The notes: a model not told the origin generated them from the letters alone. A stretch of DNA of 64,000 nt from an uncultured bacterium (GCA_943788175.1 CALSPG010000008.1:61227-125226); one strand, 5' to 3'; positions 50,030 to 64,000 are shown, numbered from the stretch's first letter. Made by a program: numbers and translations.

Positions 50030-53000
50030 ATGAGTAAACAAATGAAACCATTCATAGTAAATAAAAATTTGTCTTTCACATTAATAATCCTCTTCTTAAT
50101 TGGGTGTTCTAATATAATCGATGAGAAAGATTTGGTAGAAAGAGCATCTATTAAATATTTAAAAAATAATGATGTTCCTTTTACTGGTGAAGTGTTAGGT
50201 CAATTTGATAATGGACAAAATCAAATTGAAGGTCAGTATAATGAAGGTAAACGATTTGGCGTTTGGATAGAATACTATAATAATGGTAGTAAAAAAGAAG
50301 AGGGTAAGTATAAGGATGGCCTAAAGGTTGAAGAGTGGTTTACTTATTTTAAAGATGGCATCATAAAATCAAAAGGCGTCTATACAAGTGGGCTAAAAGA
50401 TGGATTATGGAAGTATTGGTACAATAGTGGTAAGAAAGAAAAAGAACTACAGTTTTTAGAAAATAGAGAAAATGGCCAGGCCCTTACATGGTATGAAAAT
50501 GAAAAAGAAAAAAGTGTAAGTACGTATTCGGTTGGCGTTCTGAATGGCGAGTTTTTAGAATGGGATCAAAATGGAAATATAATATCCAAAGGTATTTTTA
50601 AATCTGGGGAAAGATGGTCGGGGTATTTTGGAGATGATCATTACATAAACGGGAAGAGAGGATCTTTATTTGTAAAATATTTTAAAAATGGACAAAAAAA
50701 AATTGAGGGTATATTAATTGATGGTAAAAAAACTGGGTCATGGAGTGAGTGGTATGCTAGCGGTGATAGAAAGTTTTCGGGAGATTATAAGGCTAATATG
50801 AGAGATGGCCGCTGGATAGAGTGGGATGAAAAGGGTAAAGAAATTACTAATGGTGTTTATAAAAAAGACACACCGTGGAGAGGTCAGTTCGAAAACTTTT
50901 TCTATAGTAATGGAAAGGTAGCCCAAGAATATTTTGAATATCATAATGATGGTTCAAAAAAGATTGTTGGTACTTTTATTAATAATAAAAAGTCTGGTCA
51001 GTGGTCTGAATGGTATGAAGATGGGAAAGAAAAATATATCGGGAATTTTTTAAAAAATAAAAGACATGGAACATGGATAGAGTGGGATGAAAATGGTAAT
51101 GAAATTATTAATGGAGAATACCGTCATAACCAAAAATGGCAAGGTAGATTTAATGAAAAAAATTATTTAAGCGGTTTACTCAGGGAAGAGGTTGTTGAAA
51201 ATTATCCAAATGGTGGTATTAAAGCTTCAGGCGTTTTAGTCAATGAAGTAAAAATTGGTTCTTGGAGTTATTGGTACGAAAACAACATACTTAGAGAATC
51301 AGGGTTTTTCACAAATGATATTAAAGATTCTGAATGGATAGGTAATTATGAAAGTGGTAATAAGAAATATATTGGAAGTTATGTCAATGGGAAAAAAGAA
51401 GGCCTTTGGACTCAATGGTATGATGATACCTTAAAACAATATGAAGGATATTTTATAGGTGGAGTAAAAGATGGTGATTGGGTTGAGTGGGACAAGTATG
51501 GGAATATTAATGTCAACATAAAATATTTAGACGGTAAAAAATGGACGGGAAGGTATGATGATGTCTTTTATATCGAAGGTATTGAAAAGAAGGGTGTGAA
51601 AACAAACTACCCAAATGGTGTATTAAAAGATGAAGGTATTATTTTTAATGATAAAAAAATAGGTCGTTGGACTGAGTATTTTGATAATGGTAAAAGGAAA
51701 AATACAGGCCTATATCTTGATGGCCTTGAGCATGGGAAATGGTATTATTGGTATAAAAGCGGTAAAAAAGAAAAGGTAGGTGCTTATCAAGAGGGTAAAA
51801 AAGATGGTCCATGGAAAGGTTGGTATTTTAATGGGAATAACTTTTTTGAGCGGAATTATAGTCTTGGTGAAAAAAACGGGAAATGGGTTTGGTGGTATGA
51901 TAACAAAAAGTTAAAATATTCAGGATATTATGTAAAAGATTCGAAAGATGGTAAATGGATTGAATATACTTCTGATGGCAAGCTACTTGTTGATGGCATA
52001 TATGATATAGGAACAGAATGGAATGGCATTTTTAAGGGTGAATATTATTTTGACGGTATCAAAGCAGAGGAGCATAATGATTATTTTGCCGATGGAGGTT
52101 CTACAGCAAAAATTTCTGCGAAAGGTTTAATGATAAACGATTCTATAAAAATTGGTAAATGGGACTTTTTCCGAAAAGATGGTTCAAAGAAAAATAGCGG
52201 GAATTTTGATAAAAATAAAAAAACTGGTGAGTGGGAATATTGGTATAAAAGTGGTGATAAAGAGAAAGTTGGGTTCTTTAGAAAAGATATGATGGATGGC
52301 AAATGGGAAGGATGGTATTACTCGGGACAAAAATTTTATATAAGGACGTATAAATTAGGTAAAAAGGAAGGACTTTGGGCTTGGTGGAATAGTGATGGAA
52401 GCAAAAAATACGAGGGTATGTATTTAAATGATAAAAAAGATGGTAAGTGGAGCCAGTGGAATCAAAAGGGAGAGATTATAATTGAAGGTTCATATTATAA
52501 TGATATTAAATGGTCAGGTATTTTTGAAGATGGAAGATATTATAAAGGGCGGATGGCCAGTAGGTTCGAAGATTATTATGAAAACGGAACTCTAAAAGCG
52601 CAGGGATTACAAATAGGCGATATAAAATTAGATATGTGGAATTATTATTATGAAAATGGTAATAATAAAGAAACGGGTTCTTATGACGAAAGTGGAAAAA
52701 TTGGAGAATGGGCAACCTGGTATAAAAGTGGAAAGAAAAAAGATATAGGTAGCTACTTTGATAACAAAAAAAATGGCGAGTGGAGAGCCTGGTATTATAA
52801 TGGGCAAAGATATTATAAAAGAAATTATAAAGATGGGCAAAAACATGGCGCCTGGACATGGTGGTATGATAATGGTCAAAAAAAATATAATGGGGATTAT
52901 TATAAAGGTAAAAAAGATGGGCAATGGTTCGAATGGTCAAGTGATGGAAATCTGATAGTAAGTGGTTCATATAAAGGTGGTAAACGTTGGGACGGAATTT

Positions 53001-53044
53001 TTAAGGGCACAAAATACATATCTGGTGAAAAACAAAATTTGTAA
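50030..53044 (+). CDS. MORN-variant (YwqK-like) repeat lipoprotein
   Basis: Lipobox LIGC; about 35 repeats of W..WY.NG.K...G.Y..GKK.G. Confidence 0.9.
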   Translation: MSKQMKPFIVNKNLSFTLIILFLIGCSNIIDEKDLVERASIKYLKNNDVPFTGEVLGQFDNGQNQIEGQYNEGKRFGVWIEYYNNGSKKEEGKYKDGLKVEEWFTYFKDGIIKSKGVYTSGLKDGLWKYWYNSGKKEKELQFLENRENGQALTWYENEKEKSVSTYSVGVLNGEFLEWDQNGNIISKGIFKSGERWSGYFGDDHYINGKRGSLFVKYFKNGQKKIEGILIDGKKTGSWSEWYASGDRKFSGDYKANMRDGRWIEWDEKGKEITNGVYKKDTPWRGQFENFFYSNGKVAQEYFEYHNDGSKKIVGTFINNKKSGQWSEWYEDGKEKYIGNFLKNKRHGTWIEWDENGNEIINGEYRHNQKWQGRFNEKNYLSGLLREEVVENYPNGGIKASGVLVNEVKIGSWSYWYENNILRESGFFTNDIKDSEWIGNYESGNKKYIGSYVNGKKEGLWTQWYDDTLKQYEGYFIGGVKDGDWVEWDKYGNINVNIKYLDGKKWTGRYDDVFYIEGIEKKGVKTNYPNGVLKDEGIIFNDKKIGRWTEYFDNGKRKNTGLYLDGLEHGKWYYWYKSGKKEKVGAYQEGKKDGPWKGWYFNGNNFFERNYSLGEKNGKWVWWYDNKKLKYSGYYVKDSKDGKWIEYTSDGKLLVDGIYDIGTEWNGIFKGEYYFDGIKAEEHNDYFADGGSTAKISAKGLMINDSIKIGKWDFFRKDGSKKNSGNFDKNKKTGEWEYWYKSGDKEKVGFFRKDMMDGKWEGWYYSGQKFYIRTYKLGKKEGLWAWWNSDGSKKYEGMYLNDKKDGKWSQWNQKGEIIIEGSYYNDIKWSGIFEDGRYYKGRMASRFEDYYENGTLKAQGLQIGDIKLDMWNYYYENGNNKETGSYDESGKIGEWATWYKSGKKKDIGSYFDNKKNGEWRAWYYNGQRYYKRNYKDGQKHGAWTWWYDNGQKKYNGDYYKGKKDGQWFEWSSDGNLIVSGSYKGGKRWDGIFKGTKYISGEKQNL

Positions 53045-54003: not shown

Positions 54004-56103
54004 TTGTCGTCCATTAAAAAACATAAATTGAAATTCATTCCAAAAAAACCAATTATGGTTTGGGATGGTGATTGTAGTTTTTGCAGAAGCTTTGCGGAGC
54101 GATTTGAAGCAAGTTCCAATGATGTTGTAGAATTCATTCCATACCAGTCCTTGAACAAAAAGTATCCAAATGCTCCAAAATTAGATTATGAAAAATCTGT
54201 AGTTTTTTTTTCCTCAACTAGTGTAACAATTGGCGCTGAAGCTATTTTTAGTTTTTTTAATGTAATTGGTAAAAAGTGGCCAAAAAAACTATATGAAAAT
54301 TCTAAACTCATTTCAAAATTGTCTGAGTTCTTTTATGGTTGTATAGCAAAAAATAGAAAACTTTTTGGGTTTTTTAGTCGGATGCTTTTTGGCGATAATT
54401 TTATGCCAGATTCTTACAAAGTAAGTTCATGGATTTTTGGTAGAATGCTTGGTTTAGTTGGTGCTGCAGCATTTCTGTCATTTTGGGTTCAGGCTGAATT
54501 AATAATTAGTTCAAATGGAATACTACCTTTTGCTGAAAACTTAACTCAAATAGAATCATTTATTATTAAATCAGATTTAGATACATCTAAATGGCTTGCT
54601 AAACCAACACTATTGTGGCTTTATAAATCAGACTTATGGTTAAATATGGTTTTACTTTTAGGCTTTATTTCTTCATTGTCTCTGGCGATTGGTTTAGTTC
54701 CACATCTATCAATCTTATTATCATGGGTTTCTTATTTATCAATAGCTTCAGTTTCTGAACCATTTTTGAATTTTCAATGGGATGCTTTGCTATTAGAAGT
54801 TTACCTAATCTCAATATTTTTTGTGCCTTGGAGAGTTTTCCATAATAAAAACAATATTGAATCACCGTCTACCATTGGAAGGTGGCTATTGTGGCTATTG
54901 ATTATGAAGTTAATGCTTCAATCAGGTATAGTAAAATTTACTTTTTTTGATGTAGATGGTTCAAATGCTTGGAGAGACTTAACGGCATTAGAATATCATT
55001 TTTGGACGCAACCTATTCCATCTTGGTTGAGTTATTATTTTGATATGCTACCAATGGTAATCGACAAAATCGCACTTTTTTTTACATATGTATGCGAACT
55101 TATTATTCCGTTTTTCATCTTATTACCAAGGAAGATGCGGAGAATAGCAGCCATCTTATTAATATTATTCCAATTTTTGATTATTCTTTCAGGTAATTAT
55201 GGTTTTTTTAATTTATTAACAATCGCGCTCTGCATTTCTCTTTTTGATGATCAATATTTAAGAAAATTTAATTTTGATTTGGTCACTGATGGTAAACCCT
55301 TTCTTAAAAGTCATATAATATTTAAAAAAATAAAAAGAGGTTTAAGTTTTCTTGTTTTAATATTATTTGTTTATTCTTTTGTTATATTTTTAGGAAGGGA
55401 CCTTGAGGGTAATCGGTTATCGAGTTCAGGCCTGAATAAAAAAGTCTCAGTTCTAGAACAAAAAATATTAGATTTTTCTCAAACTTCTAGATCAATTAAT
55501 TCTTATGGCCTTTTTAGAGTAATGACTAAAACCAGGCCAGAATTTAAAATTGAATTACAATATGAAGACAGTCTATGGGTTCCAATCGATTTTAATTATA
55601 AGCCTAATCGTATTAAAAAAAGACCCGCTTTCTTTTTTCCTCATATGCCTAGAGTAGATTGGCAGATTTGGTTTGAAGCGCTTTATTATGAAAATCTTTT
55701 ATCTGATCCTTTTTTATTATCATCTTATCAAAATTTTTTATCCACAATGGTTTCAAAAGATTTAAAACTTTCTAATATTTCTATTGATGAATTTTTAAGT
55801 GTGAAGGCAAAAAAAATACTTAAAACATTGCCCCCAGCTGAAAGAAACAGTTATTTGAATCGTTTAAGTTCAAGTTTAAATAGTTATCTAGGACACTCTT
55901 ATTGGTTTGCTATGTTTTTATCTAGTTTAATAGATAAAGAATCAAGCGTTTTTCACAATTATAGAATTAAAGATAATCTTGATATAATTAAAATGAAAGT
56001 CAGTTTAAGTCATTTTACTTTTAATCATGATAGTAAAAATTCAAGTAATTGGTGGGTGAAGAAAGATATTGAAAAATCTGCTTTTACTATTGAACTACGA
56101 TAG
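54004..56103 (+). CDS. DCC1-like thiol-disulfide oxidoreductase fused to lipase maturation factor (LMF) domain
   Basis: WDGDCSFC; FLNFQWDALLLE, WRDLTALEYHFWTQPIP, SGNYGFFNLLT, YGLFRVMT..RPE, PHMPRVDWQIWF. Confidence 0.9.
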   Translation: MSSIKKHKLKFIPKKPIMVWDGDCSFCRSFAERFEASSNDVVEFIPYQSLNKKYPNAPKLDYEKSVVFFSSTSVTIGAEAIFSFFNVIGKKWPKKLYENSKLISKLSEFFYGCIAKNRKLFGFFSRMLFGDNFMPDSYKVSSWIFGRMLGLVGAAAFLSFWVQAELIISSNGILPFAENLTQIESFIIKSDLDTSKWLAKPTLLWLYKSDLWLNMVLLLGFISSLSLAIGLVPHLSILLSWVSYLSIASVSEPFLNFQWDALLLEVYLISIFFVPWRVFHNKNNIESPSTIGRWLLWLLIMKLMLQSGIVKFTFFDVDGSNAWRDLTALEYHFWTQPIPSWLSYYFDMLPMVIDKIALFFTYVCELIIPFFILLPRKMRRIAAILLILFQFLIILSGNYGFFNLLTIALCISLFDDQYLRKFNFDLVTDGKPFLKSHIIFKKIKRGLSFLVLILFVYSFVIFLGRDLEGNRLSSSGLNKKVSVLEQKILDFSQTSRSINSYGLFRVMTKTRPEFKIELQYEDSLWVPIDFNYKPNRIKKRPAFFFPHMPRVDWQIWFEALYYENLLSDPFLLSSYQNFLSTMVSKDLKLSNISIDEFLSVKAKKILKTLPPAERNSYLNRLSSSLNSYLGHSYWFAMFLSSLIDKESSVFHNYRIKDNLDIIKMKVSLSHFTFNHDSKNSSNWWVKKDIEKSAFTIELR

Positions 56104-56153
56104 TATTGTAATAAATTCTTAAAATTTTTAACATTTAAATAAAAGTATATCGA

Positions 56154-58211
56154 ATGAAAAATATTAACCTTATAATTTTATATTTCTTCTTTTTTTTGGG
56201 ATTTGTTTTTTCGCAAAACATTGAGACAAAAAAACTTGAAAATAAGAACAAAAAAAATAAAGCACCCACCGCTATTACCGGTAAAAACATTCAAACTTTC
56301 CCTGGGGCGACAATAACTCTGTCAGGTGAAAAATCTGAAGATCCTGATGAAGATTTATTGCAGTACATATGGTCTTTTCCACCTTCTTTTATTTTTGAAG
56401 AAAACTATAAATATGATAAAACAGATAGATTGGTGATTTATACAAACCTTAAAGACAATTCAATAAAATCTATAGAAACATATACCAGGTCCTTTTTAGT
56501 AGACTTGCCTAACTCTTTACCAATTGGATCAAAACATACTATTAATTTGACTGTAAAGGACCCTGGAGGATTAACCTCTAGTGATTCATTTACAGTTAGT
56601 ACAATAATGCCGGATTCATCGCAGATAGCGGACAAAAATGATGATTATCCGGGAAAAGGAACTAAATCTATTAAAAAAGAAAACAACATTTCGATATCTA
56701 TTCAATCAATCACTTCTCAAAGTAGTGCTTCAATGAATTCATCAGCAATCAATGGAATGATTTATAATATTTTGAAAAATTTAGGAATGGATAATATTAT
56801 TGATCCAAGTGCCTACATTGCCGATACGTTGTATACTATTAAAAAAAGTAACCTTACAAAAGCGGCATTGAAGTCTAAATATAATGATGTTTGTGAAACA
56901 GATTCGTGTGCCGCTCAAAACGCGATTATGCTGAAAGCGACTCATGTATTAACCTGGAGCTTTAGTAAACATAGTTCACTTGTTATGAATTTTTATAAGC
57001 CGGATGAATATCTTCAAAAAAATACTCAATATTCATGGTCAGGATTTTCTGTCCCTGTCAACCCTAAAGATGCTAATAAAACAAAGCTTCCGAACGCTAT
57101 TTCGATAAGTAATAATGATGATCTTTTTATAACAAGTGGTAATAATAATAATGTTTACAAACTTGGTTTAGATCAAAAATTAGAAGAACTCATTACAGGG
57201 AAAGTATATAATAAAGAGTTGTCAAACCCCTCGGGAATTGATATTGGTGCAAACGGAAAAATCTATGTTTCTGATAAAGATAATAATAGAATCATTAGCA
57301 TGATGAATGGCAAGTATCAAAAAATAGCAGATGAAAATTCATCCCCAAAAATTATTAAGCCAACATCTATAAGATATTTAGGCAATGGTTCTATAGCGGT
57401 ATTGTGCGAAGGTGATCAATCAATAAGAAAAGTATCTTCAAATGGTAGAGTCTCAACAATTTTAGCGCCTGGAATAGTTGAGGGTATGACTGATATAGCC
57501 GTAGATAATGATGGAAAATTTTTTGTTGTAAGTCCTCATCTTGAGCAAGTGTTCAAAATTATAAATAGTAAAAAAGTTGAGGTGATAGCTGGCTTTAAAA
57601 AAGGGGATGGACTTAAAGGAAATAAAATACCAGCAAAAGAAGCGCAACTATTTTACCCGGTGTCAATTGATTTTGATGATTCTGGTAAGCTATACATTGC
57701 TGAAAAAGGGAAAGGACTCATTAGGTATGTGGATTCTGAAAATCTTTTAATTAAGATTGCTGGTGGAGGAAATATTGCTTCACCTAGTGGTTATGTTAAT
57801 TCTGCTGACCTTAAACTAACAAACATGTCAAGTATGAGAGTTGGTAAGGATCAGAGTATTTATGTATCCCAAATGCTTGATAACTCTTTAATATGTATTG
57901 ATATTAAAGAAAAGTATGAATTTTTAGGAAATGAGAACTTTATGACCCCAATGTATTTAATTCAAAAAGATGGTATATCAGCTTTAGAACCTTATTTGCT
58001 TTCATCGTTACCCAAGCTTTTAAAAGGATTCGCTCCTAGACAAAAAATATCAGTTAAAGAAAGCTTTAAAAAAATAAATAAAAATGCAGCGACTTACTTT
58101 AAAGATAGACCTGTTCTTTTTGCAGTTTTAATGGTTGCGACGACTCAAGCAATTCAATCTATTGCTGAAAATTCGAAGTCATTAGACACACCACCAGATT
58201 TTCCATTTTAA
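56154..58211 (+). CDS. Exported protein with PKD-like Ig domain, CxxxxC module and NHL beta-propeller
   Basis: Signal peptide; NKAPTA...ITLSGEKSEDPD.D.LQYIW...LTVKD.GG; LSNPSGIDIG.NGKIYVSD..NNRI; LFYPVSIDFDDSGKLYIAE. Confidence 0.8.
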   Translation: MKNINLIILYFFFFLGFVFSQNIETKKLENKNKKNKAPTAITGKNIQTFPGATITLSGEKSEDPDEDLLQYIWSFPPSFIFEENYKYDKTDRLVIYTNLKDNSIKSIETYTRSFLVDLPNSLPIGSKHTINLTVKDPGGLTSSDSFTVSTIMPDSSQIADKNDDYPGKGTKSIKKENNISISIQSITSQSSASMNSSAINGMIYNILKNLGMDNIIDPSAYIADTLYTIKKSNLTKAALKSKYNDVCETDSCAAQNAIMLKATHVLTWSFSKHSSLVMNFYKPDEYLQKNTQYSWSGFSVPVNPKDANKTKLPNAISISNNDDLFITSGNNNNVYKLGLDQKLEELITGKVYNKELSNPSGIDIGANGKIYVSDKDNNRIISMMNGKYQKIADENSSPKIIKPTSIRYLGNGSIAVLCEGDQSIRKVSSNGRVSTILAPGIVEGMTDIAVDNDGKFFVVSPHLEQVFKIINSKKVEVIAGFKKGDGLKGNKIPAKEAQLFYPVSIDFDDSGKLYIAEKGKGLIRYVDSENLLIKIAGGGNIASPSGYVNSADLKLTNMSSMRVGKDQSIYVSQMLDNSLICIDIKEKYEFLGNENFMTPMYLIQKDGISALEPYLLSSLPKLLKGFAPRQKISVKESFKKINKNAATYFKDRPVLFAVLMVATTQAIQSIAENSKSLDTPPDFPF

Positions 58212-58252
58212 TTTAAAATTAACAAACAATCGTTTTTAATGAGGAGTATATC

Positions 58253-61200
58253 ATGAAAAAACTAATTTACATAGCAGCTATATTTTTAATACCGCTGCTA
58301 GCTCAAAATAAAAAAAATGAAATTAAGTTTTCTAATAAAACAGAAATTCTTAAAGTCAAAAATGAAAGCACTTCTGTAGCAGCAGTTCCTAGAAAAGTTG
58401 CTTATCAAGGTATTTTGACAAAAGATAATGGCCAACCAGCTGACGATAGAATGTACAACGTGAAGTTTCGATTATATAATTTGCTTGAAGGCGGAGAGCC
58501 CTTTTGGGAAGAATCTCAAATAATCTTTATAAATGATGGCCTTTTATCAGCTACTGTTGGTGTTTATAATGAACTTAATAAAATTCCCGCTAATGCATTT
58601 TTAGAAGTCGAAGTTGGGGGAAGTGTCCTGGAGCCAAGGCAAGAAATGACCTCTGTGTTTTATTCTATTATTTCTGATACTTCTTACTTTGCAAAAGGAT
58701 ATACGCGGACAGAGGACTTACCTCCTGTTTCATTATCTGGAGAGTATAGTGATCTAAAAAATATACCAGATACGTTAATAGCTGATGTCTTTATAGGAAG
58801 CGCTTCTGGGTTGACAGGAATATTAGCTGATTCAATTGGTGTCTTAAGTGGATCTCGACCTATTGTTTTTGAGGGTGATAATAATAATGAATTTCAAGTG
58901 TCGTTAAAAATTCAAGATCCAACATCCGATAATGAAATTATGATTCCCAATACAAGTGGAACAATCATTACGACTGGAAATGATCAGCTAATTGACAAAG
59001 TTGGAACCATTAATTCGGGGGCATGGAATGGCTCCAGAATAAATGATGCATTTATTAATGATGATTTAACTATTTTAGATGGTGAAATTAATGCAACCCC
59101 AATCGGGAATTCAGTGCCCTCATCTGCAAGTTTCACATCATTAACTACAGAAGATGGATTAAAAATTTACAATGGTAATATAGCTTTATCTAATGATGAA
59201 TTAAATGTTCTAGATAGTGTTGTACATGGGCAAGCTTCTCCTGGAAGAGCACTTGTGGTTGATAGTGAGAAAGATATTCTTTGGTCTAAGAAATATTAAC
59301 GCTGTAGGTACAGTGAATGCAGAATCGTTTGCTGGTATGTTTATGGGTGATGGTTCTGGTATCACTGGTGTTTCAGCAAGCTCAATTAAATCAGATGATT
59401 TGACGCCAGGTGATGCTGCTGTTACGATTACTACTTCTACTGGTGGGATAAATTTGACGCCAGCTGCAGGCTCATGATTGTTTTAGATGGATCAGTGAGT
59501 GTAGATGAAGGTATTGTTTCTGGGATAACAAGTTTAACAGCAGGCAGTATCAAACGGAACAGTTAATGCAGATCGTTTGCTGGTATGTTTATAGGTGATG
59601 GTTCTGGTATAACTGGTGTTTCAGCAACTCAATTAAATCAGATGATTTACGCCTGGTGATGCTGCTGTTACGATCAGTACTTCTACTGGTGGGATAAATT
59701 TGACGCCAGCTGCAGGTTCGATGATTGTTTTAGATGGATCAGTGAGTGTAGATGAAGGTATTGTTTCTGGGATAACAAGTTTAACAGCAGGAACTATCAG
59801 CGATGGAACCGCAACGCTTTCTAGCGGAGCTTTATCTGGAGCAACGACGATTACTGGTTCAGGTGCAATTACTGGTGGTTCATTAATCATAGATGAGGTA
59901 TTAATAAATCGATCAGAAATTGGTCATATACAAAACTCAGACTTAATTACTTTATCAGCTAACCAAGTTTTGGTAGATGGTGGAGTTACAGCCGGAACAT
60001 TAAATATAGGTGGAACAAATATAACAGCAACAGCGAATGAATTAAATTATGTTGATGGCGTTACTTCTAATATTCAGACGCAGTTGGATGCAAAGACAGG
60101 GATTACAACAGATCAAGCTTCTGCGATCACAGCAAATACCGCCAAGGTTGGTTACACAGATGATTTAGTAGCGGCAAATTCTGCTGTTGCAGCGAATACG
60201 GCAAAGACTGGAATTACAACAGATCAAGCTTCTGCGATCACAGCAAATACCGCCAAGGTTGGTTACACAGATGATTTAGTAGCGGCAAATTCTGCTGTTG
60301 CAGCAATACACGCGAAGACAGGAATTACAACAGATCAAGCTTCTGCGATTACAGCAAATACAGCAAAGGTTGGTTATACAGATGATCTAGTAGCAGCAAA
60401 CTCTGCTGTTGCAGCGAATACGGCAAAGACAGGAATCACAACAGATCAAGCTTCTGCGATACAGCAAATACCGCGCAAGGTTGAGTTATACAGATGATCT
60501 AGTAGCAGCAAACTCTGCTGTTGCAGCGAATACGGCAAAGACAGGGATCACAACATCTCAAGCTTCAGCAATTACAGCGAATACAGCAAAGACAGGGATT
60601 ACAACAGATCAAGCTTCTGCGATTACAGCAAATACCGCCAAGGTTGGTTATACAGATGATCTAGTAGCAGCAAACTCTGCTGTTGCAGCGAATACGGCAA
60701 AGACAGGAATCACAACAGCTCAAGCTTCAGCAATTACAGCGAATACAGCGAAGACAGGAATTACAACAGATCAAGCTTCTGCGATCACAGCAAATACCGC
60801 CAAGGTTGGTTACACAGATGATTTAGTAGCGGCAAATTCTGCTGTTGCAGCGAACACGGCAAAGACTGGAATTACAACAGATCAAGCTTCTGCGATCACA
60901 GCAAATACCGCCAAAGTTGGTTACACAGATGATTTAGTAGCGGCAAATTCTGCTGTTGCAGCGAACACGGCAAAGACTGGAATTACAACAGATCAAGCTT
61001 CTGCGATCACAGCAAATACCGCCAAGGTTGGTTACACAGATGATTTAGTAGCGGCAAATTCTGCTGTTGCAGCGAACTACGGCAAAGACTGGAATTACAA
61101 CAGATCAAGCTTCTGCGATCACAGCAAATACCGCCAAGGTTGGTTACACAGATGATTTAGTAGCGGCAAATTCTGCTGTTGCAGCAATACACGGCAAAGA

Positions 61201-64000
61201 CAGGAATTACAACAGATCAAGCTTCTGCGATTACAGCAAATACCGCCAAGGTTGGTTATACAGATGATCTAGTAGCAGCAAACTCTGCTGTTGCAGCAAA
61301 TACGGCAGAAGACAGGGATTACAACAGATCAAGCTTCGCTTATAGATGCTATCACATCAACGGCAACAGAATTGAATATTCTCGATGGAGTTACTTCAAC
61401 GACAGCGGAGTTGAATCTTTTGGATGGAGTGACAGCGACGACGGCAGAATTAAATTATGTAGATGGTGTTACTTCTAATATTCAGACGCAGTTGGATGCA
61501 AAGACAGGAATCACAACAGATCAAGCTTCAGCGATCACAGCAAATACCGCCAAGGTTGGTTATACAGATGATCTAGTAGCGGCAAACTCTGCTGTTGCAG
61601 CAAATACGGCGAAGACAGGGATTACAACAGATCAAGCTTCGCTTATAGATGCTATCACATCAACGGCAACAGAATTGAATATTCTTGATGGAGTTACTTC
61701 AACGACAGCGGAGTTGAATCTTTTGGATGGAGTGACAGCGACGACGGCTGAGTTAAATTATTGATGGCGTTACCTCTACAACTGCAGAATTAAACTATGT
61801 AGATGGAGTTACATCAAACATACAAGCTCAATTAGACTCAAAATCTTCTACAGCAGAATTTGATGATCTTACTGATGCTAAATCAGGTGGAAGTAATTTT
61901 TCTAATTCAATGATTTTAGGACACCAAACTACCGGGACACTTAATAATGCAGATGAAAATATTGGGCTAGGTATTGGATCTCTTGAATCAATAACCTCTG
62001 GTGATAGGAATACTGCTATTGGTAAAGATGCAATGAATAGTAATACAGATGGTAATTATAATACTAGTTCAGGATATCAAAGTTTGTATGTGAATACCAC
62101 GGGAAGTTTTAATGTTGCCGTAGGAAATTCATCATTGGGGCTAAACATTGATGGAAATTCGAATATTGGCCTGGGGCATAGAGCTTTGAATAGCAACACT
62201 AGTGGAGACTTGAACGTAGCAATTGGTAGAAAAGCATTGTACTCTACAACGACTAGTCAATATAATTTGGCCGTTGGTACCTATGCTTTAGAGGATGCTA
62301 ATCGAACAGCAGACACTGATGGTTATAATGTTGCATTGGGTTATAATTCGGGTAATACAGGAACTAATGATATTACTACGGGTAATAAAAACACTCTTTT
62401 AGGCTCTTCAACAGCAGCCTCAGCAGCCGCAGGAACTAATCAGACAGTGATTGGTTATGGTGCATCAGGTAAAGGTAATAATACAGTAACGATAGGTAAT
62501 GGAGACATTACTCATTGGTTAGCATCAGATGATAATGAAGTTGACTTGGGTAGTAGCTCGATTGAGTTCAAAGATCTTTATTTGGATGGGATTGCTTATG
62601 TAGACGGTCTTGATTTAAATGGTACGACAATCTCTGCGACAGCAGCAGAATTAAACTATGTTGATGGCGTTACTTCAATATCCAGACGCAGTTGAATGCA
62701 AAGAGTTGGTTCAGTAAGCTTTATCGATTTATCACTCACGGCACAGATTGAAATTCTTGATGGGTTACTTCACACAGCGGAGTTAAATCTTTAGATGGGT
62801 TACTTCAACTACGCAGAATTAACTCAATATCCAGACGCAGTTGAATGCAAAAGGAGTTGGTTCAGTAAGTGCTTTATCTGATTTATCAGTTACCTCTACG
62901 GCATCAGAGTTGAACATTCTTGATGGGGTTACTTCGACAGCAGCGGAGTTAAATCTTCTAGATGGCGTTACTTCAACTACCGCAGAACTTAACTATGTTG
63001 ATGGCGTTACTTCCAATATCCAGACGCAGTTGAATGCAAAAGGAGTTGGTTCAGTAAGTGCTTTATCTGATTTATCAGTTACCTCTACGGCATCAGAGTT
63101 GAACATTCTTGATGGGGTTACTTCGACAACAGCGGAGTTAAATCTTTTAGATGGTGGTACATCCGCTTCATCAACAACTATTGTTGATGCCGATAGGTTA
63201 GTCTTAAATGATAATGGAACGATGGTTCAAGTTGCGGTATCGGATTTAGGAACATATATTGCTTCTAATTCAAGCTTAGATGTATTATCAGACTCCAAAT
63301 CTGGAGGCACAAATTTTACAGGTTCCATAATTGTCGGTCATCAAAATACTGGTACTTTAGATGCTGCTGATAATAATACTGGTGTTGGTCTGACAGCGCT
63401 TGATGCGGTTACAACTGGAGATGGGAACACTGCTGTTGGATATAATGCATTAACCGCCAACACTACGGGAGAAGGTAATGTTGCTATTGGATATAATACT
63501 TTAGCTGCAAATACTACAGCTAGTCAGAACTTGGCTATGGGATATAATGCTCTTGCAATCCAAACAACAGATGGTGCATTCAATACCGCTGTTGGGAGTT
63601 ATACTCTAGATAATAATACAATTGGGGATAAGAATGTTGCTTTAGGATACGTTGCATTAACACAAAATTCTGAAGGTAGTAATAATGTTGGTATTGGATC
63701 TAGTTCATCAAAATCAAATAGTACAGGTTCATCCAATACTTCGGCAGGAAATAGTAGTCTTTATTCGAATACTGCAGCAAACTATAATACTGCAATTGGA
63801 GCAGAGGCTCTTTATGACGCTAATCGAACAGCTGACACAGATGGTTATAACACCGCATTAGGTTATAATGCCGGGAATACAGGAACCAATGATCTTACAA
63901 CTGGGAATAAAAATACGTTACTTGGGGCAAGTACAGCCGCTTCAGCTGCAGCAGGTACAAACCAGATAGTCATTGGTTATGGTGCATCTGGGCAAGCAGA
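58253..64000 (+). CDS. Giant exported fibre/adhesin-like protein (>1900 aa), multiply frameshifted in this assembly, 3' truncated
   Basis: GAGGAG RBS, signal peptide, PRKVAYQGILT... N-domain. Track ORFs 58253, 59217, 59700, 60409, 61067, 61179, 61291 and 61910 plus an unlisted open frame ~62826-64000 join by small indels into one repeat protein. Confidence 0.8.
59310..59791 (+). repeat. Two tandem ~250-bp copies (~84 aa) within the fibre gene
   Basis: GCTGGTATGTTTAT.GGTGATGGTTCTGG at 59331 and 59579; both copies end GGGATAACAAGTTTAACAGCAGG. Confidence 0.9.
60093..61640 (+). repeat. Coding tandem array of 111-bp units (51-bp A + 60-bp B)
   Basis: A = KTGITTDQASAITANTA, B = KVGYTDDLVAANSAVAANTA; units start at 60093, 60204, 60315...; ~11 B copies, with extra A copies near 60538 and 60700. 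Confidence 0.95.
62640..63150 (+). repeat. 189-bp (63-aa) tandem repeat containing 42-bp ELNxLDGVT subrepeats
   Basis: CCAGACGCAGTTGAATGCAAA at 62681, 62831 and 63020; the first copy carries many deletions. Confidence 0.88.

Follow-up and report, generated by a model that had tools for sequence, protein, structure and literature searches.

A giant phage-like fibre gene at a contig end of a marine Marinimicrobia genome: a candidate cell-surface appendage

A single fibre gene in broken frames

Marinimicrobia (SAR406) are abundant uncultured bacteria of the ocean. We analysed a stretch of 64,000 nt from one such genome (GCA_943788175.1, CALSPG010000008.1:61227-125226; hereafter the window), the source assembly of which comprises 12 contigs and 2.27 Mb at 33% G+C. 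The window ends where its contig (C8) ends, and positions 58253-64000 on the + strand hold one fibre gene of ~2,050-2,100 codons (~6.2 kb), truncated by the contig end. The gene product is probably a phage-like, trimeric surface fibre. A first-pass annotation, made from the sequence of the window, had read this region as one giant protein (>1900 aa) lying in broken frames, with an N-terminal signal peptide and a defined series of modules. The giant protein was borne out at the length given above, direct reading supports the signal peptide, and every module is present in the order claimed. The modules are as follows.

58253..58303, + strand: signal peptide, residues 1-17, MKKLIYIAAIFLIPLLA, then Gln18 (read by eye)
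58388..58651, + strand: N-terminal beta-sandwich domain, residues 46-133, PRKVAYQGILTK...FWEESQ...PRQEMTSVFYS (alignment A1, AlphaFold2 model)
58736..59277, + strand: linker motif SGEYSDLKNIPD, then the initial shaft modules as far as the first break (Y165, L168, P172 and D173 invariant)
59310..59799, + strand: duplicated 82-aa module, 247-nt unit present 2.0 times (tandem-repeat measurement)
60090..61337, + strand: stalk of 37-aa (111-nt) repeats, TGITTDQASAITANTAKVGYTDDLVAANSAVAANTAK, present 11.3 times, with several breaks (tandem-repeat measurement)
61340..61880, + strand: 13-aa (39-nt) ELNxLDGVT repeats, a second short stalk block and NIQTQLDAK connectors (repeats and motif positions)
61884..62510, + strand: head 1, NxAxG-type repeats (motif positions)
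62511..63185, + strand: FKDLYLDG connector and 63-aa repeats (translation)
63186..63248, + strand: DADRLVLNDNGTMVQVAVSDL module, with DADRLVLNDNGTM at 63186 (translation)
63290..64000, + strand: head 2, cut by the contig end (overlap with contig C6)
L001:10636-11280 on contig C6, minus strand, beyond the window: remainder of head 2, then a stretch resembling a triple beta-helix and, at the C-terminus, a TNF-like knob

Four single bases are missing from the second copy of the duplicated module in the window, and contig C6 lacks 122 nt at this place. Positions 62677-62825 are a garbled extra stretch, missing from C6 as a 148-nt gap. The DADRLVLNDNGTMVQVAVSDL type of motif also occurs in the Marinimicrobia protein P0047.

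The frame breaks are consensus errors

The fibre region contains ~12 breaks (counted as stop-to-stop segments), and nine + strand open reading frames (ORFs) of at least 60 aa lie in changing frames within 58253-64000; the remaining 58 kb of the window carries normal unbroken ORFs. The reverse-complemented end of contig C6 overlaps C8 by 8.8 kb from window position 55203 (96-100% identity). On C6 the overlap is G000:C6:314267-322904 (L001), which pairs with window 55203-64000 in four collinear pieces.

Piece 1: 4345 nt, 119 mismatches, 5 gaps
Piece 2: 1979 nt, 34 mismatches, 16 gaps
Piece 3: 1511 nt, 12 mismatches, 43 gaps
Piece 4 (last stretch of the window): 1176 nt, 0 mismatches, 0 gaps; open

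C8 and C6 are therefore adjacent in the genome, and the assembly contains their shared end in two copies. The overlap shows substitutions of a strain-like kind (119 in 4.3 kb) together with small indels. A global alignment of the gene between the two contigs gave 79 substitutions, along with 16 small indels (1-2 nt) and three large ones (122, 111 and 148 nt). The C6 copy is frame-shifted as well, at sites other than those of the window copy, and it contains an intact 1109-aa frame that extends 634 nt past the window to a stop codon. The frame was checked against contigs from four public marine metagenome runs belonging to four studies, which depart from the window precisely where the frame breaks; the indel rows listed are given below with the number of runs that show each change.

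59277: one base less; frame restored in 4/4 metagenome runs and also in the C6 copy
59553: +C; 2/4 metagenome runs
59572: +C; 3/4 metagenome runs
59627: +G; 4/4 metagenome runs
59648: +G; 4/4 metagenome runs
60304/60311: compensating pair; 1/4 metagenome runs
61188: one base less; 2/4 metagenome runs
61759: +TA; 3/4 metagenome runs

Polishing with accurate reads and extending the contig had been proposed in the first-pass annotation. The C6 end supplies the extension, and at the sites listed the contigs of the four metagenome studies restore the frame. Since the C8 and C6 copies break differently, the metagenome contigs restore the frame and intact relatives exist (see below), we conclude that the fibre gene is whole in nature and that the frame breaks are consensus errors. 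A gene downstream of the fibre gives a parallel case. This giant Lys/Glu/Asn-rich coiled-coil gene (L001:2709-8521, minus strand), the product of which had no Pfam family match, is split into frames of 806, 382 and 783 aa on C6, and in the same-genus genome G004 it is a single open frame of at least 1527 aa (L009:14421-19001), open as far as the stretch retrieved extends, which hints at consensus errors where the two contigs end.

In the contigs of all four metagenome runs, 133 other letters link 59473 with 59994, which suggests a common population variant with another module replacing the duplicated one. Joints from 61477 to 62906, which skip head 1, were also seen in metagenome contigs; they lie between repeats, are perhaps assembly-graph shortcuts and were not counted as variants. 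The G+C content of the fibre region is 39-44% versus 33% genome-wide. The stalk (window 59500-61500) has 41-44% G+C, a value that Ala/Gly/Thr-rich repeats or imported modules could explain. A scan for promoters and terminators found sites no commoner than in shuffled sequence, with a consensus that does not suit the phylum.

A cellular base domain at the N-terminus

The signal peptide, read by eye, consists of MKK, a hydrophobic core and an A followed by Q, a pattern conserved in 19/19 relatives; it has two lysine residues, its core spans 13 residues, and the residue preceding the glutamine is small. Gln18 (window 58304) is invariant in 19/19 aligned fibre relatives, and alignment A1 of the N-terminal region has 22 invariant columns. 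Glutamine is also the commonest residue after signal-like hydrophobic runs genome-wide (66/260 in a crude scan), and a Gln after the signal-peptide core was noted at the N-termini of the neighbours (56154 and L001:10620). In the parts of the source drawn on here, the 'Q-rule' is described for Bacteroidetes and not for the whole Fibrobacteres-Chlorobi-Bacteroidetes (FCB) group (PMC5837995). Marinimicrobia may also follow it.

AlphaFold2 modelled the N-domain as a six-strand beta-sandwich with a predicted local distance difference test score (pLDDT) of ~88-93 over residues 50-110. Foldseek gave no solved relative at E<=1e-3, and the best VIA Z was 7.0, at the head of a flat list with no specific solved relative. 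A type IX C-terminal domain (that of mirolase, rank 2, Z 6.8) was considered and rejected, being tied with dozens of unrelated Ig-like sandwiches. In a sequence search of solved structures neither the 348-aa N-terminal piece nor the 1109-aa piece matched anything at E<0.03.

At E<=1e-3 the N-domain profile matched 37,544 cluster representatives; at E<=1e-10 the count was 12,443, and the domain is N-terminal in nearly all of the 150 cluster representatives listed. Among the matches listed its relatives are mostly from Patescibacteria, and a wider alignment reaches Patescibacteria proteins named 'tail fiber domain-containing' by NCBI. Unnamed clusters in the ESM Atlas at 0.92 are a lead only. 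No relative was confirmed on 2.9 million viral contigs (40 pattern matches) or found in 50,697 phage records, and there was no viral fold match at E<=1e-3.

A phage-type shaft and a C-terminal knob

PHROG virion-structural and tail-spike families match the heads with E values of 5e-27 to 5e-40, and 129 phage records match the fibre. Most of these are tail fibres of marine phages, and the leading matches are to phages of Synechococcus, Prochlorococcus, Pelagibacter and Roseobacter, along with Mycobacterium and Bacillus phages. The ELNxLDGVT/stalk region is 63% identical over 71 aa with PRRG_00025 of Prochlorococcus phage P-RSP2, and the ANTAK/ELN modules are 42% identical with the same protein over 210 aa. 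To the tail fibre of Pelagibacter phage Kolga (gp17) the identity is 31% for residues 204-298, and a match of the fibre to the Kolga tail fibre reaches 46% over 142 aa. The claim that heads, ELNxLDGVT stalk and tip are phage-like is thus upheld by real phage relatives in the PHROG families, the 129 phage records and P-RSP2. The DADRVVLNDNGTM motif, given in the first-pass annotation as common in marine phage fibres, was found in the Marinimicrobia protein P0047; it was not seen in two phage fibres scanned with a loose pattern that also missed the fibre's own motif in the translation.

Pfam gave no family on the heads, stalk, N-domain or C-terminal end at E up to 10; the set searched did not include PF28204 and PF26696, for which precomputed assignments exist in some relatives. 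The earlier reading of the heads as YadA-like, in the manner of a trimeric autotransporter, was not supported, with no PF05658 or other Pfam match at E up to 10 and no barrel anchor.

The last 215 aa of the protein were modelled with a pLDDT of 80.9 as an extended stretch followed by a nine-strand sandwich. The best match of this knob is the capsid spike of Pseudomonas phage Pa223 (VIA Z 13.2; root mean square deviation 2.2 A over 94 residues), and in Foldseek the spike aligned with the C-terminal piece over 227 columns that include the triple beta-helix (E 3.7e-7). Lower fold matches of the knob were a baseplate protein of Klebsiella phage KP1 (Z 9.8) and residues 79-180 of CBA120 tailspike 4 (Z 8.6), and residues 1-117 of the C-terminal piece align with triple beta-helices of the gp5/VgrG type (Z 4.6-5.2). 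The model thus places a jelly-roll/TNF-like knob at the extreme C-terminus after a triple beta-helix. As described in the parts of the source drawn on here, the Pa223 spike, gp52, is a homotrimer with three parts, namely an attachment arm, a triple beta-helix and a knob of TNF fold (10.1101/2025.06.11.659172). Because the best fold match is to the knob and triple beta-helix of a solved homotrimer, we infer that the fibre too is probably homotrimeric.

Relatives of the knob were confirmed on viral contigs for 290 of 393 pattern matches, and the knob matches 105 cultured-phage records, some of them annotated as minor tail protein. The one viral locus examined (L147) is that of a T7-like podovirus, in which the knob is on a 175-aa protein with replication genes on one side and the portal gene on the other. 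This protein (L147:5800-6327) lies between the exonuclease and the portal, an odd place for a fibre part and one that recalls a capsid-spike role.

The first-pass annotation had suggested a search for a C-terminal Peptidase_S74 chaperone, a trimeric autotransporter barrel or a type IX C-terminal sorting domain, and none of the three was found; the end is the knob. Peptidase_S74 (PF13884) was found neither on the fibre nor elsewhere in the 92%-complete genome, no type IX sorting domain (TIGR04183, NCBIfam) was found on the fibre, C-terminal frame included, and for a YadA-type barrel there was no Pfam match on the 1109-aa C-terminal frame, nor on the last 215 aa at E up to 10. Taken together, the base N-domain is cellular, and the shaft and knob are of phage type.

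Near-identical ends and a variable middle

Relatives with intact frames were found. The closest, P0285, is a complete protein of 1873 aa on a 7.8-kb contig, 88% identical over residues 1-342 and 96.7% identical over 391 C-terminal residues; its middle differs in having only two ANTAK motifs, where the present stalk has many, and in carrying an additional, third head block. In P0004 (2189 aa) the N-terminal domain is 37% identical and the C-terminal end 54%. Single open frames with both ends occur in G004, G006, G010 and G011 (1453, 1742, 1726 and 1364 aa respectively). By these sequence comparisons, the middle of the fibre appears to be exchanged between close strains, with near-identical ends kept.

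In a set of 40 related genomes, many of them incomplete, the N-terminal 348 aa of the fibre were matched in 19 (17/24 of the family and 6/8 of the genus) and the last 215 aa in 12. Scanning named genomes with alignment A1 gave 47 N-domain loci, nearly all from Candidatus (Neo)marinimicrobiota; labels outside Marinimicrobia were one Legionellales metagenome-assembled genome (MAG) and one Nitrospinota MAG. The named matches P0047 and P0147 agree with a Marinimicrobia origin. At least half of the gene's sampled words were held by 19 marine metagenome runs from 10 studies.

Neighbouring genes and a type IX-sorted partner

The first-pass annotation had placed the fibre on the chromosome with no prophage genes nearby, and Pfam analysis of both flanks agrees with this. 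Among 29 flanking proteins, covering ~22 kb upstream and 18 kb downstream, no phage genes were found, nor were capsid or terminase genes present in the 18 kb immediately downstream, and the flanking genes are confined to metabolism and the envelope. None of the refuting outcomes named in the first-pass annotation appeared where a test was feasible. On the upstream side are GH3, beta-lactamase-like, ABC, M1 peptidase, PAD, MORN, Ppx/GppA, LMF1-like and PKD/NHL genes; downstream are genes for a 610-aa type IX-sorted protein, the giant coiled-coil protein, RNase H and a rhodanese-domain protein. The gene directly 5' of the fibre, assigned by Pfam, is:

56154..58211, + strand: PKD and NHL-repeat protein, 685 aa, ending 42 nt before the fibre gene

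A homologue of the PKD/NHL protein stands directly 5' of the fibre at 8/16 loci with upstream DNA, or at 10 when two weak matches are included. Two further upstream genes stood out. The gene at window 50030-53044 encodes a 1004-aa MORN-repeat protein in DNA where the GC skew, measured over 1-kb windows, is an extreme +0.46 to +0.56. The gene at 54004-56103 encodes a bacterial protein in which lipase maturation factor (LMF1) domains, better known from animals, accompany a DCC1-like thiol-disulfide oxidoreductase domain.

The 610-aa protein follows the fibre closely. Its orthologue lies on the same strand within 400 nt after the knob for 10 of the 11 knob matches that reach the protein end, relatives and the present genome counted together (G000:C6, G001:C70, G004:C5, G006:C38, G010:C3, G011:C24, G011:C32, G012:C100, G016:C134 and G024:C7); the exception, G022:C171, is a weak match (E 3.3e-9, 143-aa frame). 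In the present genome ~13 nt separate the fibre stop from the start of the 610-aa gene, the product of which carries a type A sorting domain. Genome-wide there are 81 matches to type IX sorting domains (79 over the cut-off), the one closest to the fibre gene being that of this neighbour, and PorU was found above the cut-off. For a 2.27-Mb genome, 81 sorting tails are a very large share of surface cargo.

This arrangement raises the tentative possibility of a two-part appendage, in which the fibre would be mounted on, or exported with, the 610-aa protein, perhaps together with the PKD/NHL protein. Such a device would refine, and not replace, the explanation preferred below. In its favour are the position of the orthologue after 10/11 knob ends, the ~13 nt gap, and the type A sorting domain of the neighbour in a genome with PorU. 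There is also a vacancy of this kind in the MAT (mosaic adhesive trimer) fibres of Bdellovibrio, for which the parts of the description drawn on here give the surface element that binds the N-domain as unidentified (Caulton 2024, PMC10769870). However, gene adjacency differs from binding, G022:C171 breaks the pattern, many fibre loci stop at contig ends so that copies with other tips are unscored, and distant homologues of the 610-aa protein are also present in genomes with no fibre match.

A more specific and rather doubtful conjecture is that the fibre and the 610-aa protein form a two-gene device, in which the sorted protein, fixed by PorU, carries or anchors the untagged fibre. If this were so, the 610-aa protein would be the missing mounting partner of MAT-type fibres and would define a piggy-back type IX route, and the knob, found also on virion proteins of marine podoviruses, would imply one kind of target for the bacterium and the phages. 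The conserved type IX-sorted neighbour is a testable lead on how the fibre is mounted.

A model for the fibre and the alternatives to it

On balance we consider it probable that this free-living marine bacterium of the Marinimicrobia (SAR406) has an intact gene for a cell-surface fibre, ~2,050-2,100 residues long, which belongs to the same type as the MAT fibres that lack Peptidase_S74 (non-S74). In this model Sec would export the chain, and signal peptidase I would cleave it before Gln18. Three chains would then intertwine, forming a long repeat shaft, a pair of beta-rich heads and, at the end, a triple beta-helix. The fibre would be held at the cell surface by the cellular N-terminal beta-sandwich, which would remain there. 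The distal TNF-like knob, a module common to phage virion spikes and minor tail proteins, would bind a ligand, whether on particles, on polymers or on other cells. The fibre middle could be swapped between close strains by recombination among repeat modules.

Several points weigh against this model. Surface location and binding are predicted from the gene and the fold, the reading of heads and stalk from likeness in sequence, and the probable trimer from the resemblance of a monomer model to known folds. There is no evident route for export across the outer membrane, since the fibre has no type IX tail despite the 81 tails and PorU in the genome. Five breaks (near 59476, 60440-60490, 61078 and 61305, and the garbled 62677-62825) are contradicted by the error-ridden C6 copy and by none of the metagenome rows listed. 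Finally, none of the 10 N-domain profile matches looked up was from Bdellovibrio, those with names being from Latescibacteria and WOR-3.

A different role is conceivable, and we regard it as unlikely: the product could be a secreted or coat-like structural protein (a sheath, matrix or protective layer) with no specific ligand, its phage-like modules serving as rigid blocks and its variation being driven by phage or grazer pressure. The very long repetitive shaft and the replacement of the middle between close strains would suit such a protein, as would a G+C content of 39-44% versus 33%, expected of Ala/Gly/Thr-rich structural repeats, and the binding role of the knob is a prediction from a model. 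However, conserved ends around a variable middle fit a base and a functional tip, and the knob fold is that of phage parts for host recognition and attachment.

It is very unlikely that the gene is a true pseudogene in this strain, with real frameshifts. The ~12 breaks of the window copy and the different set in C6 might suggest decay, as might the five breaks outside the metagenome rows listed. Yet the breaks are restricted to a repeat-rich stretch that was assembled twice, the C8 and C6 copies disagree at them, and the final 1176 nt are identical and open in both copies; moreover, public contigs restore the frame wherever an indel row is listed at a break, and the coiled-coil gene, split likewise on C6 yet open in G004, points to consensus errors. 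The locus has practical value as a worked example of a repeat-rich gene posing as a pseudogene through overlapping contig ends and consensus errors.

A tail fibre of a prophage, tailocin or phage-like particle that is not anchored to the cell would account for the strong phage similarity of heads, stalk modules and knob, but it is largely refuted by the lack of flanking genes for a capsid, terminase, portal, sheath, tube or baseplate (Pfam, both sides), by a signal peptide and an N-domain with no relative found on viral contigs or in phage records, and by a chromosomal neighbourhood that is fixed across genera.

The fibre gene is a concrete candidate for an attachment organelle of Marinimicrobia, conserved in 17/24 genomes of the family and in marine metagenomes of ten studies, with a clean division between a cellular base domain and phage-derived working parts. 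Its value would lie mainly in the type IX-sorted partner and in Marinimicrobia ecology.

Comparison with known systems

The fibre resembles YadA-type (type Vc) adhesins in its long, repetitive head-and-stalk look and in its 14-aa NxAxG-like repeats. Unlike them, it has no YadA_head match (E up to 10) and no barrel, and its C-terminus is a soluble knob. Another comparison is with the 'tail fiber domain-containing proteins' of Limnobacter, Patescibacteria and others, which are also giant cellular proteins with the same head repeats, and those of Patescibacteria have in addition a related YQG...W N-domain. These proteins, however, end in a self-cleaving Peptidase_S74, whereas the present fibre does not.

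Fibres and virion proteins of marine phages (PRRG_00025, Kolga gp17 and the L147 knob protein) share the ELNxLDGVT/stalk, heads and knob at 30-63% identity, but they have no signal peptide or N-domain and are encoded among virion genes. Pa223 gp52 (PDB 9ny6) has, like the fibre, a triple beta-helix followed by a C-terminal TNF-fold knob, and in the parts of its description used here it is suspected of acting in host adsorption (10.1101/2025.06.11.659172). The two are 14-16% identical. According to the same source gp52 has 295 aa and sits on the capsid via a 40-residue attachment arm, whereas the knob end described here sits on a 2,000-residue exported cellular fibre.

The closest known kind appears to be the non-S74 MAT fibres of Bdellovibrio, judged by shared plan and with the N-domains compared by description only. 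The parts of Caulton 2024 (PMC10769870) drawn on here describe 21 MAT fibres of B. bacteriovorus HD100, 13 with and 8 without S74, all of which have a signal peptide and a conserved beta-rich N-domain of ~130 aa with no solved homologues; their shafts are trimeric and phage-like, their tips can be swapped, and they are on the predator surface. The non-S74 subgroup (such as Bd2133 and Bd1334) and the present fibre both have a signal peptide followed by a beta-rich domain with no solved homologue, and MAT fibres in general share with it a phage-like shaft, a variable tip that sometimes has no S74, and a chromosomal gene outside prophage. Here the tip is the knob; among relatives that share the N-domain, the end is of another kind or S74 is present.

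There are also clear differences. At ~2,070 aa the present fibre is about twice as long as the Bdellovibrio MAT fibres (626-1151 aa for the members with length given in that source), and it has two head blocks and a long stalk of 37-aa repeats. Its host is a non-predatory marine Marinimicrobia bacterium with type IX secretion, and the gene is followed by the conserved type IX-sorted partner gene. In the library searched, literature that uses the MAT family name concerns Bdellovibrio-like predators alone, and a literature search for Marinimicrobia with tail fibre or adhesin returned nothing on such a fibre. New here are the knob fibre/610-aa gene pair, the combination of a cellular base with a phage-type shaft and knob, and the strain-variable middle. 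The locus would extend the MAT-type fibre plan from predatory Bdellovibrio to a free-living marine lineage.

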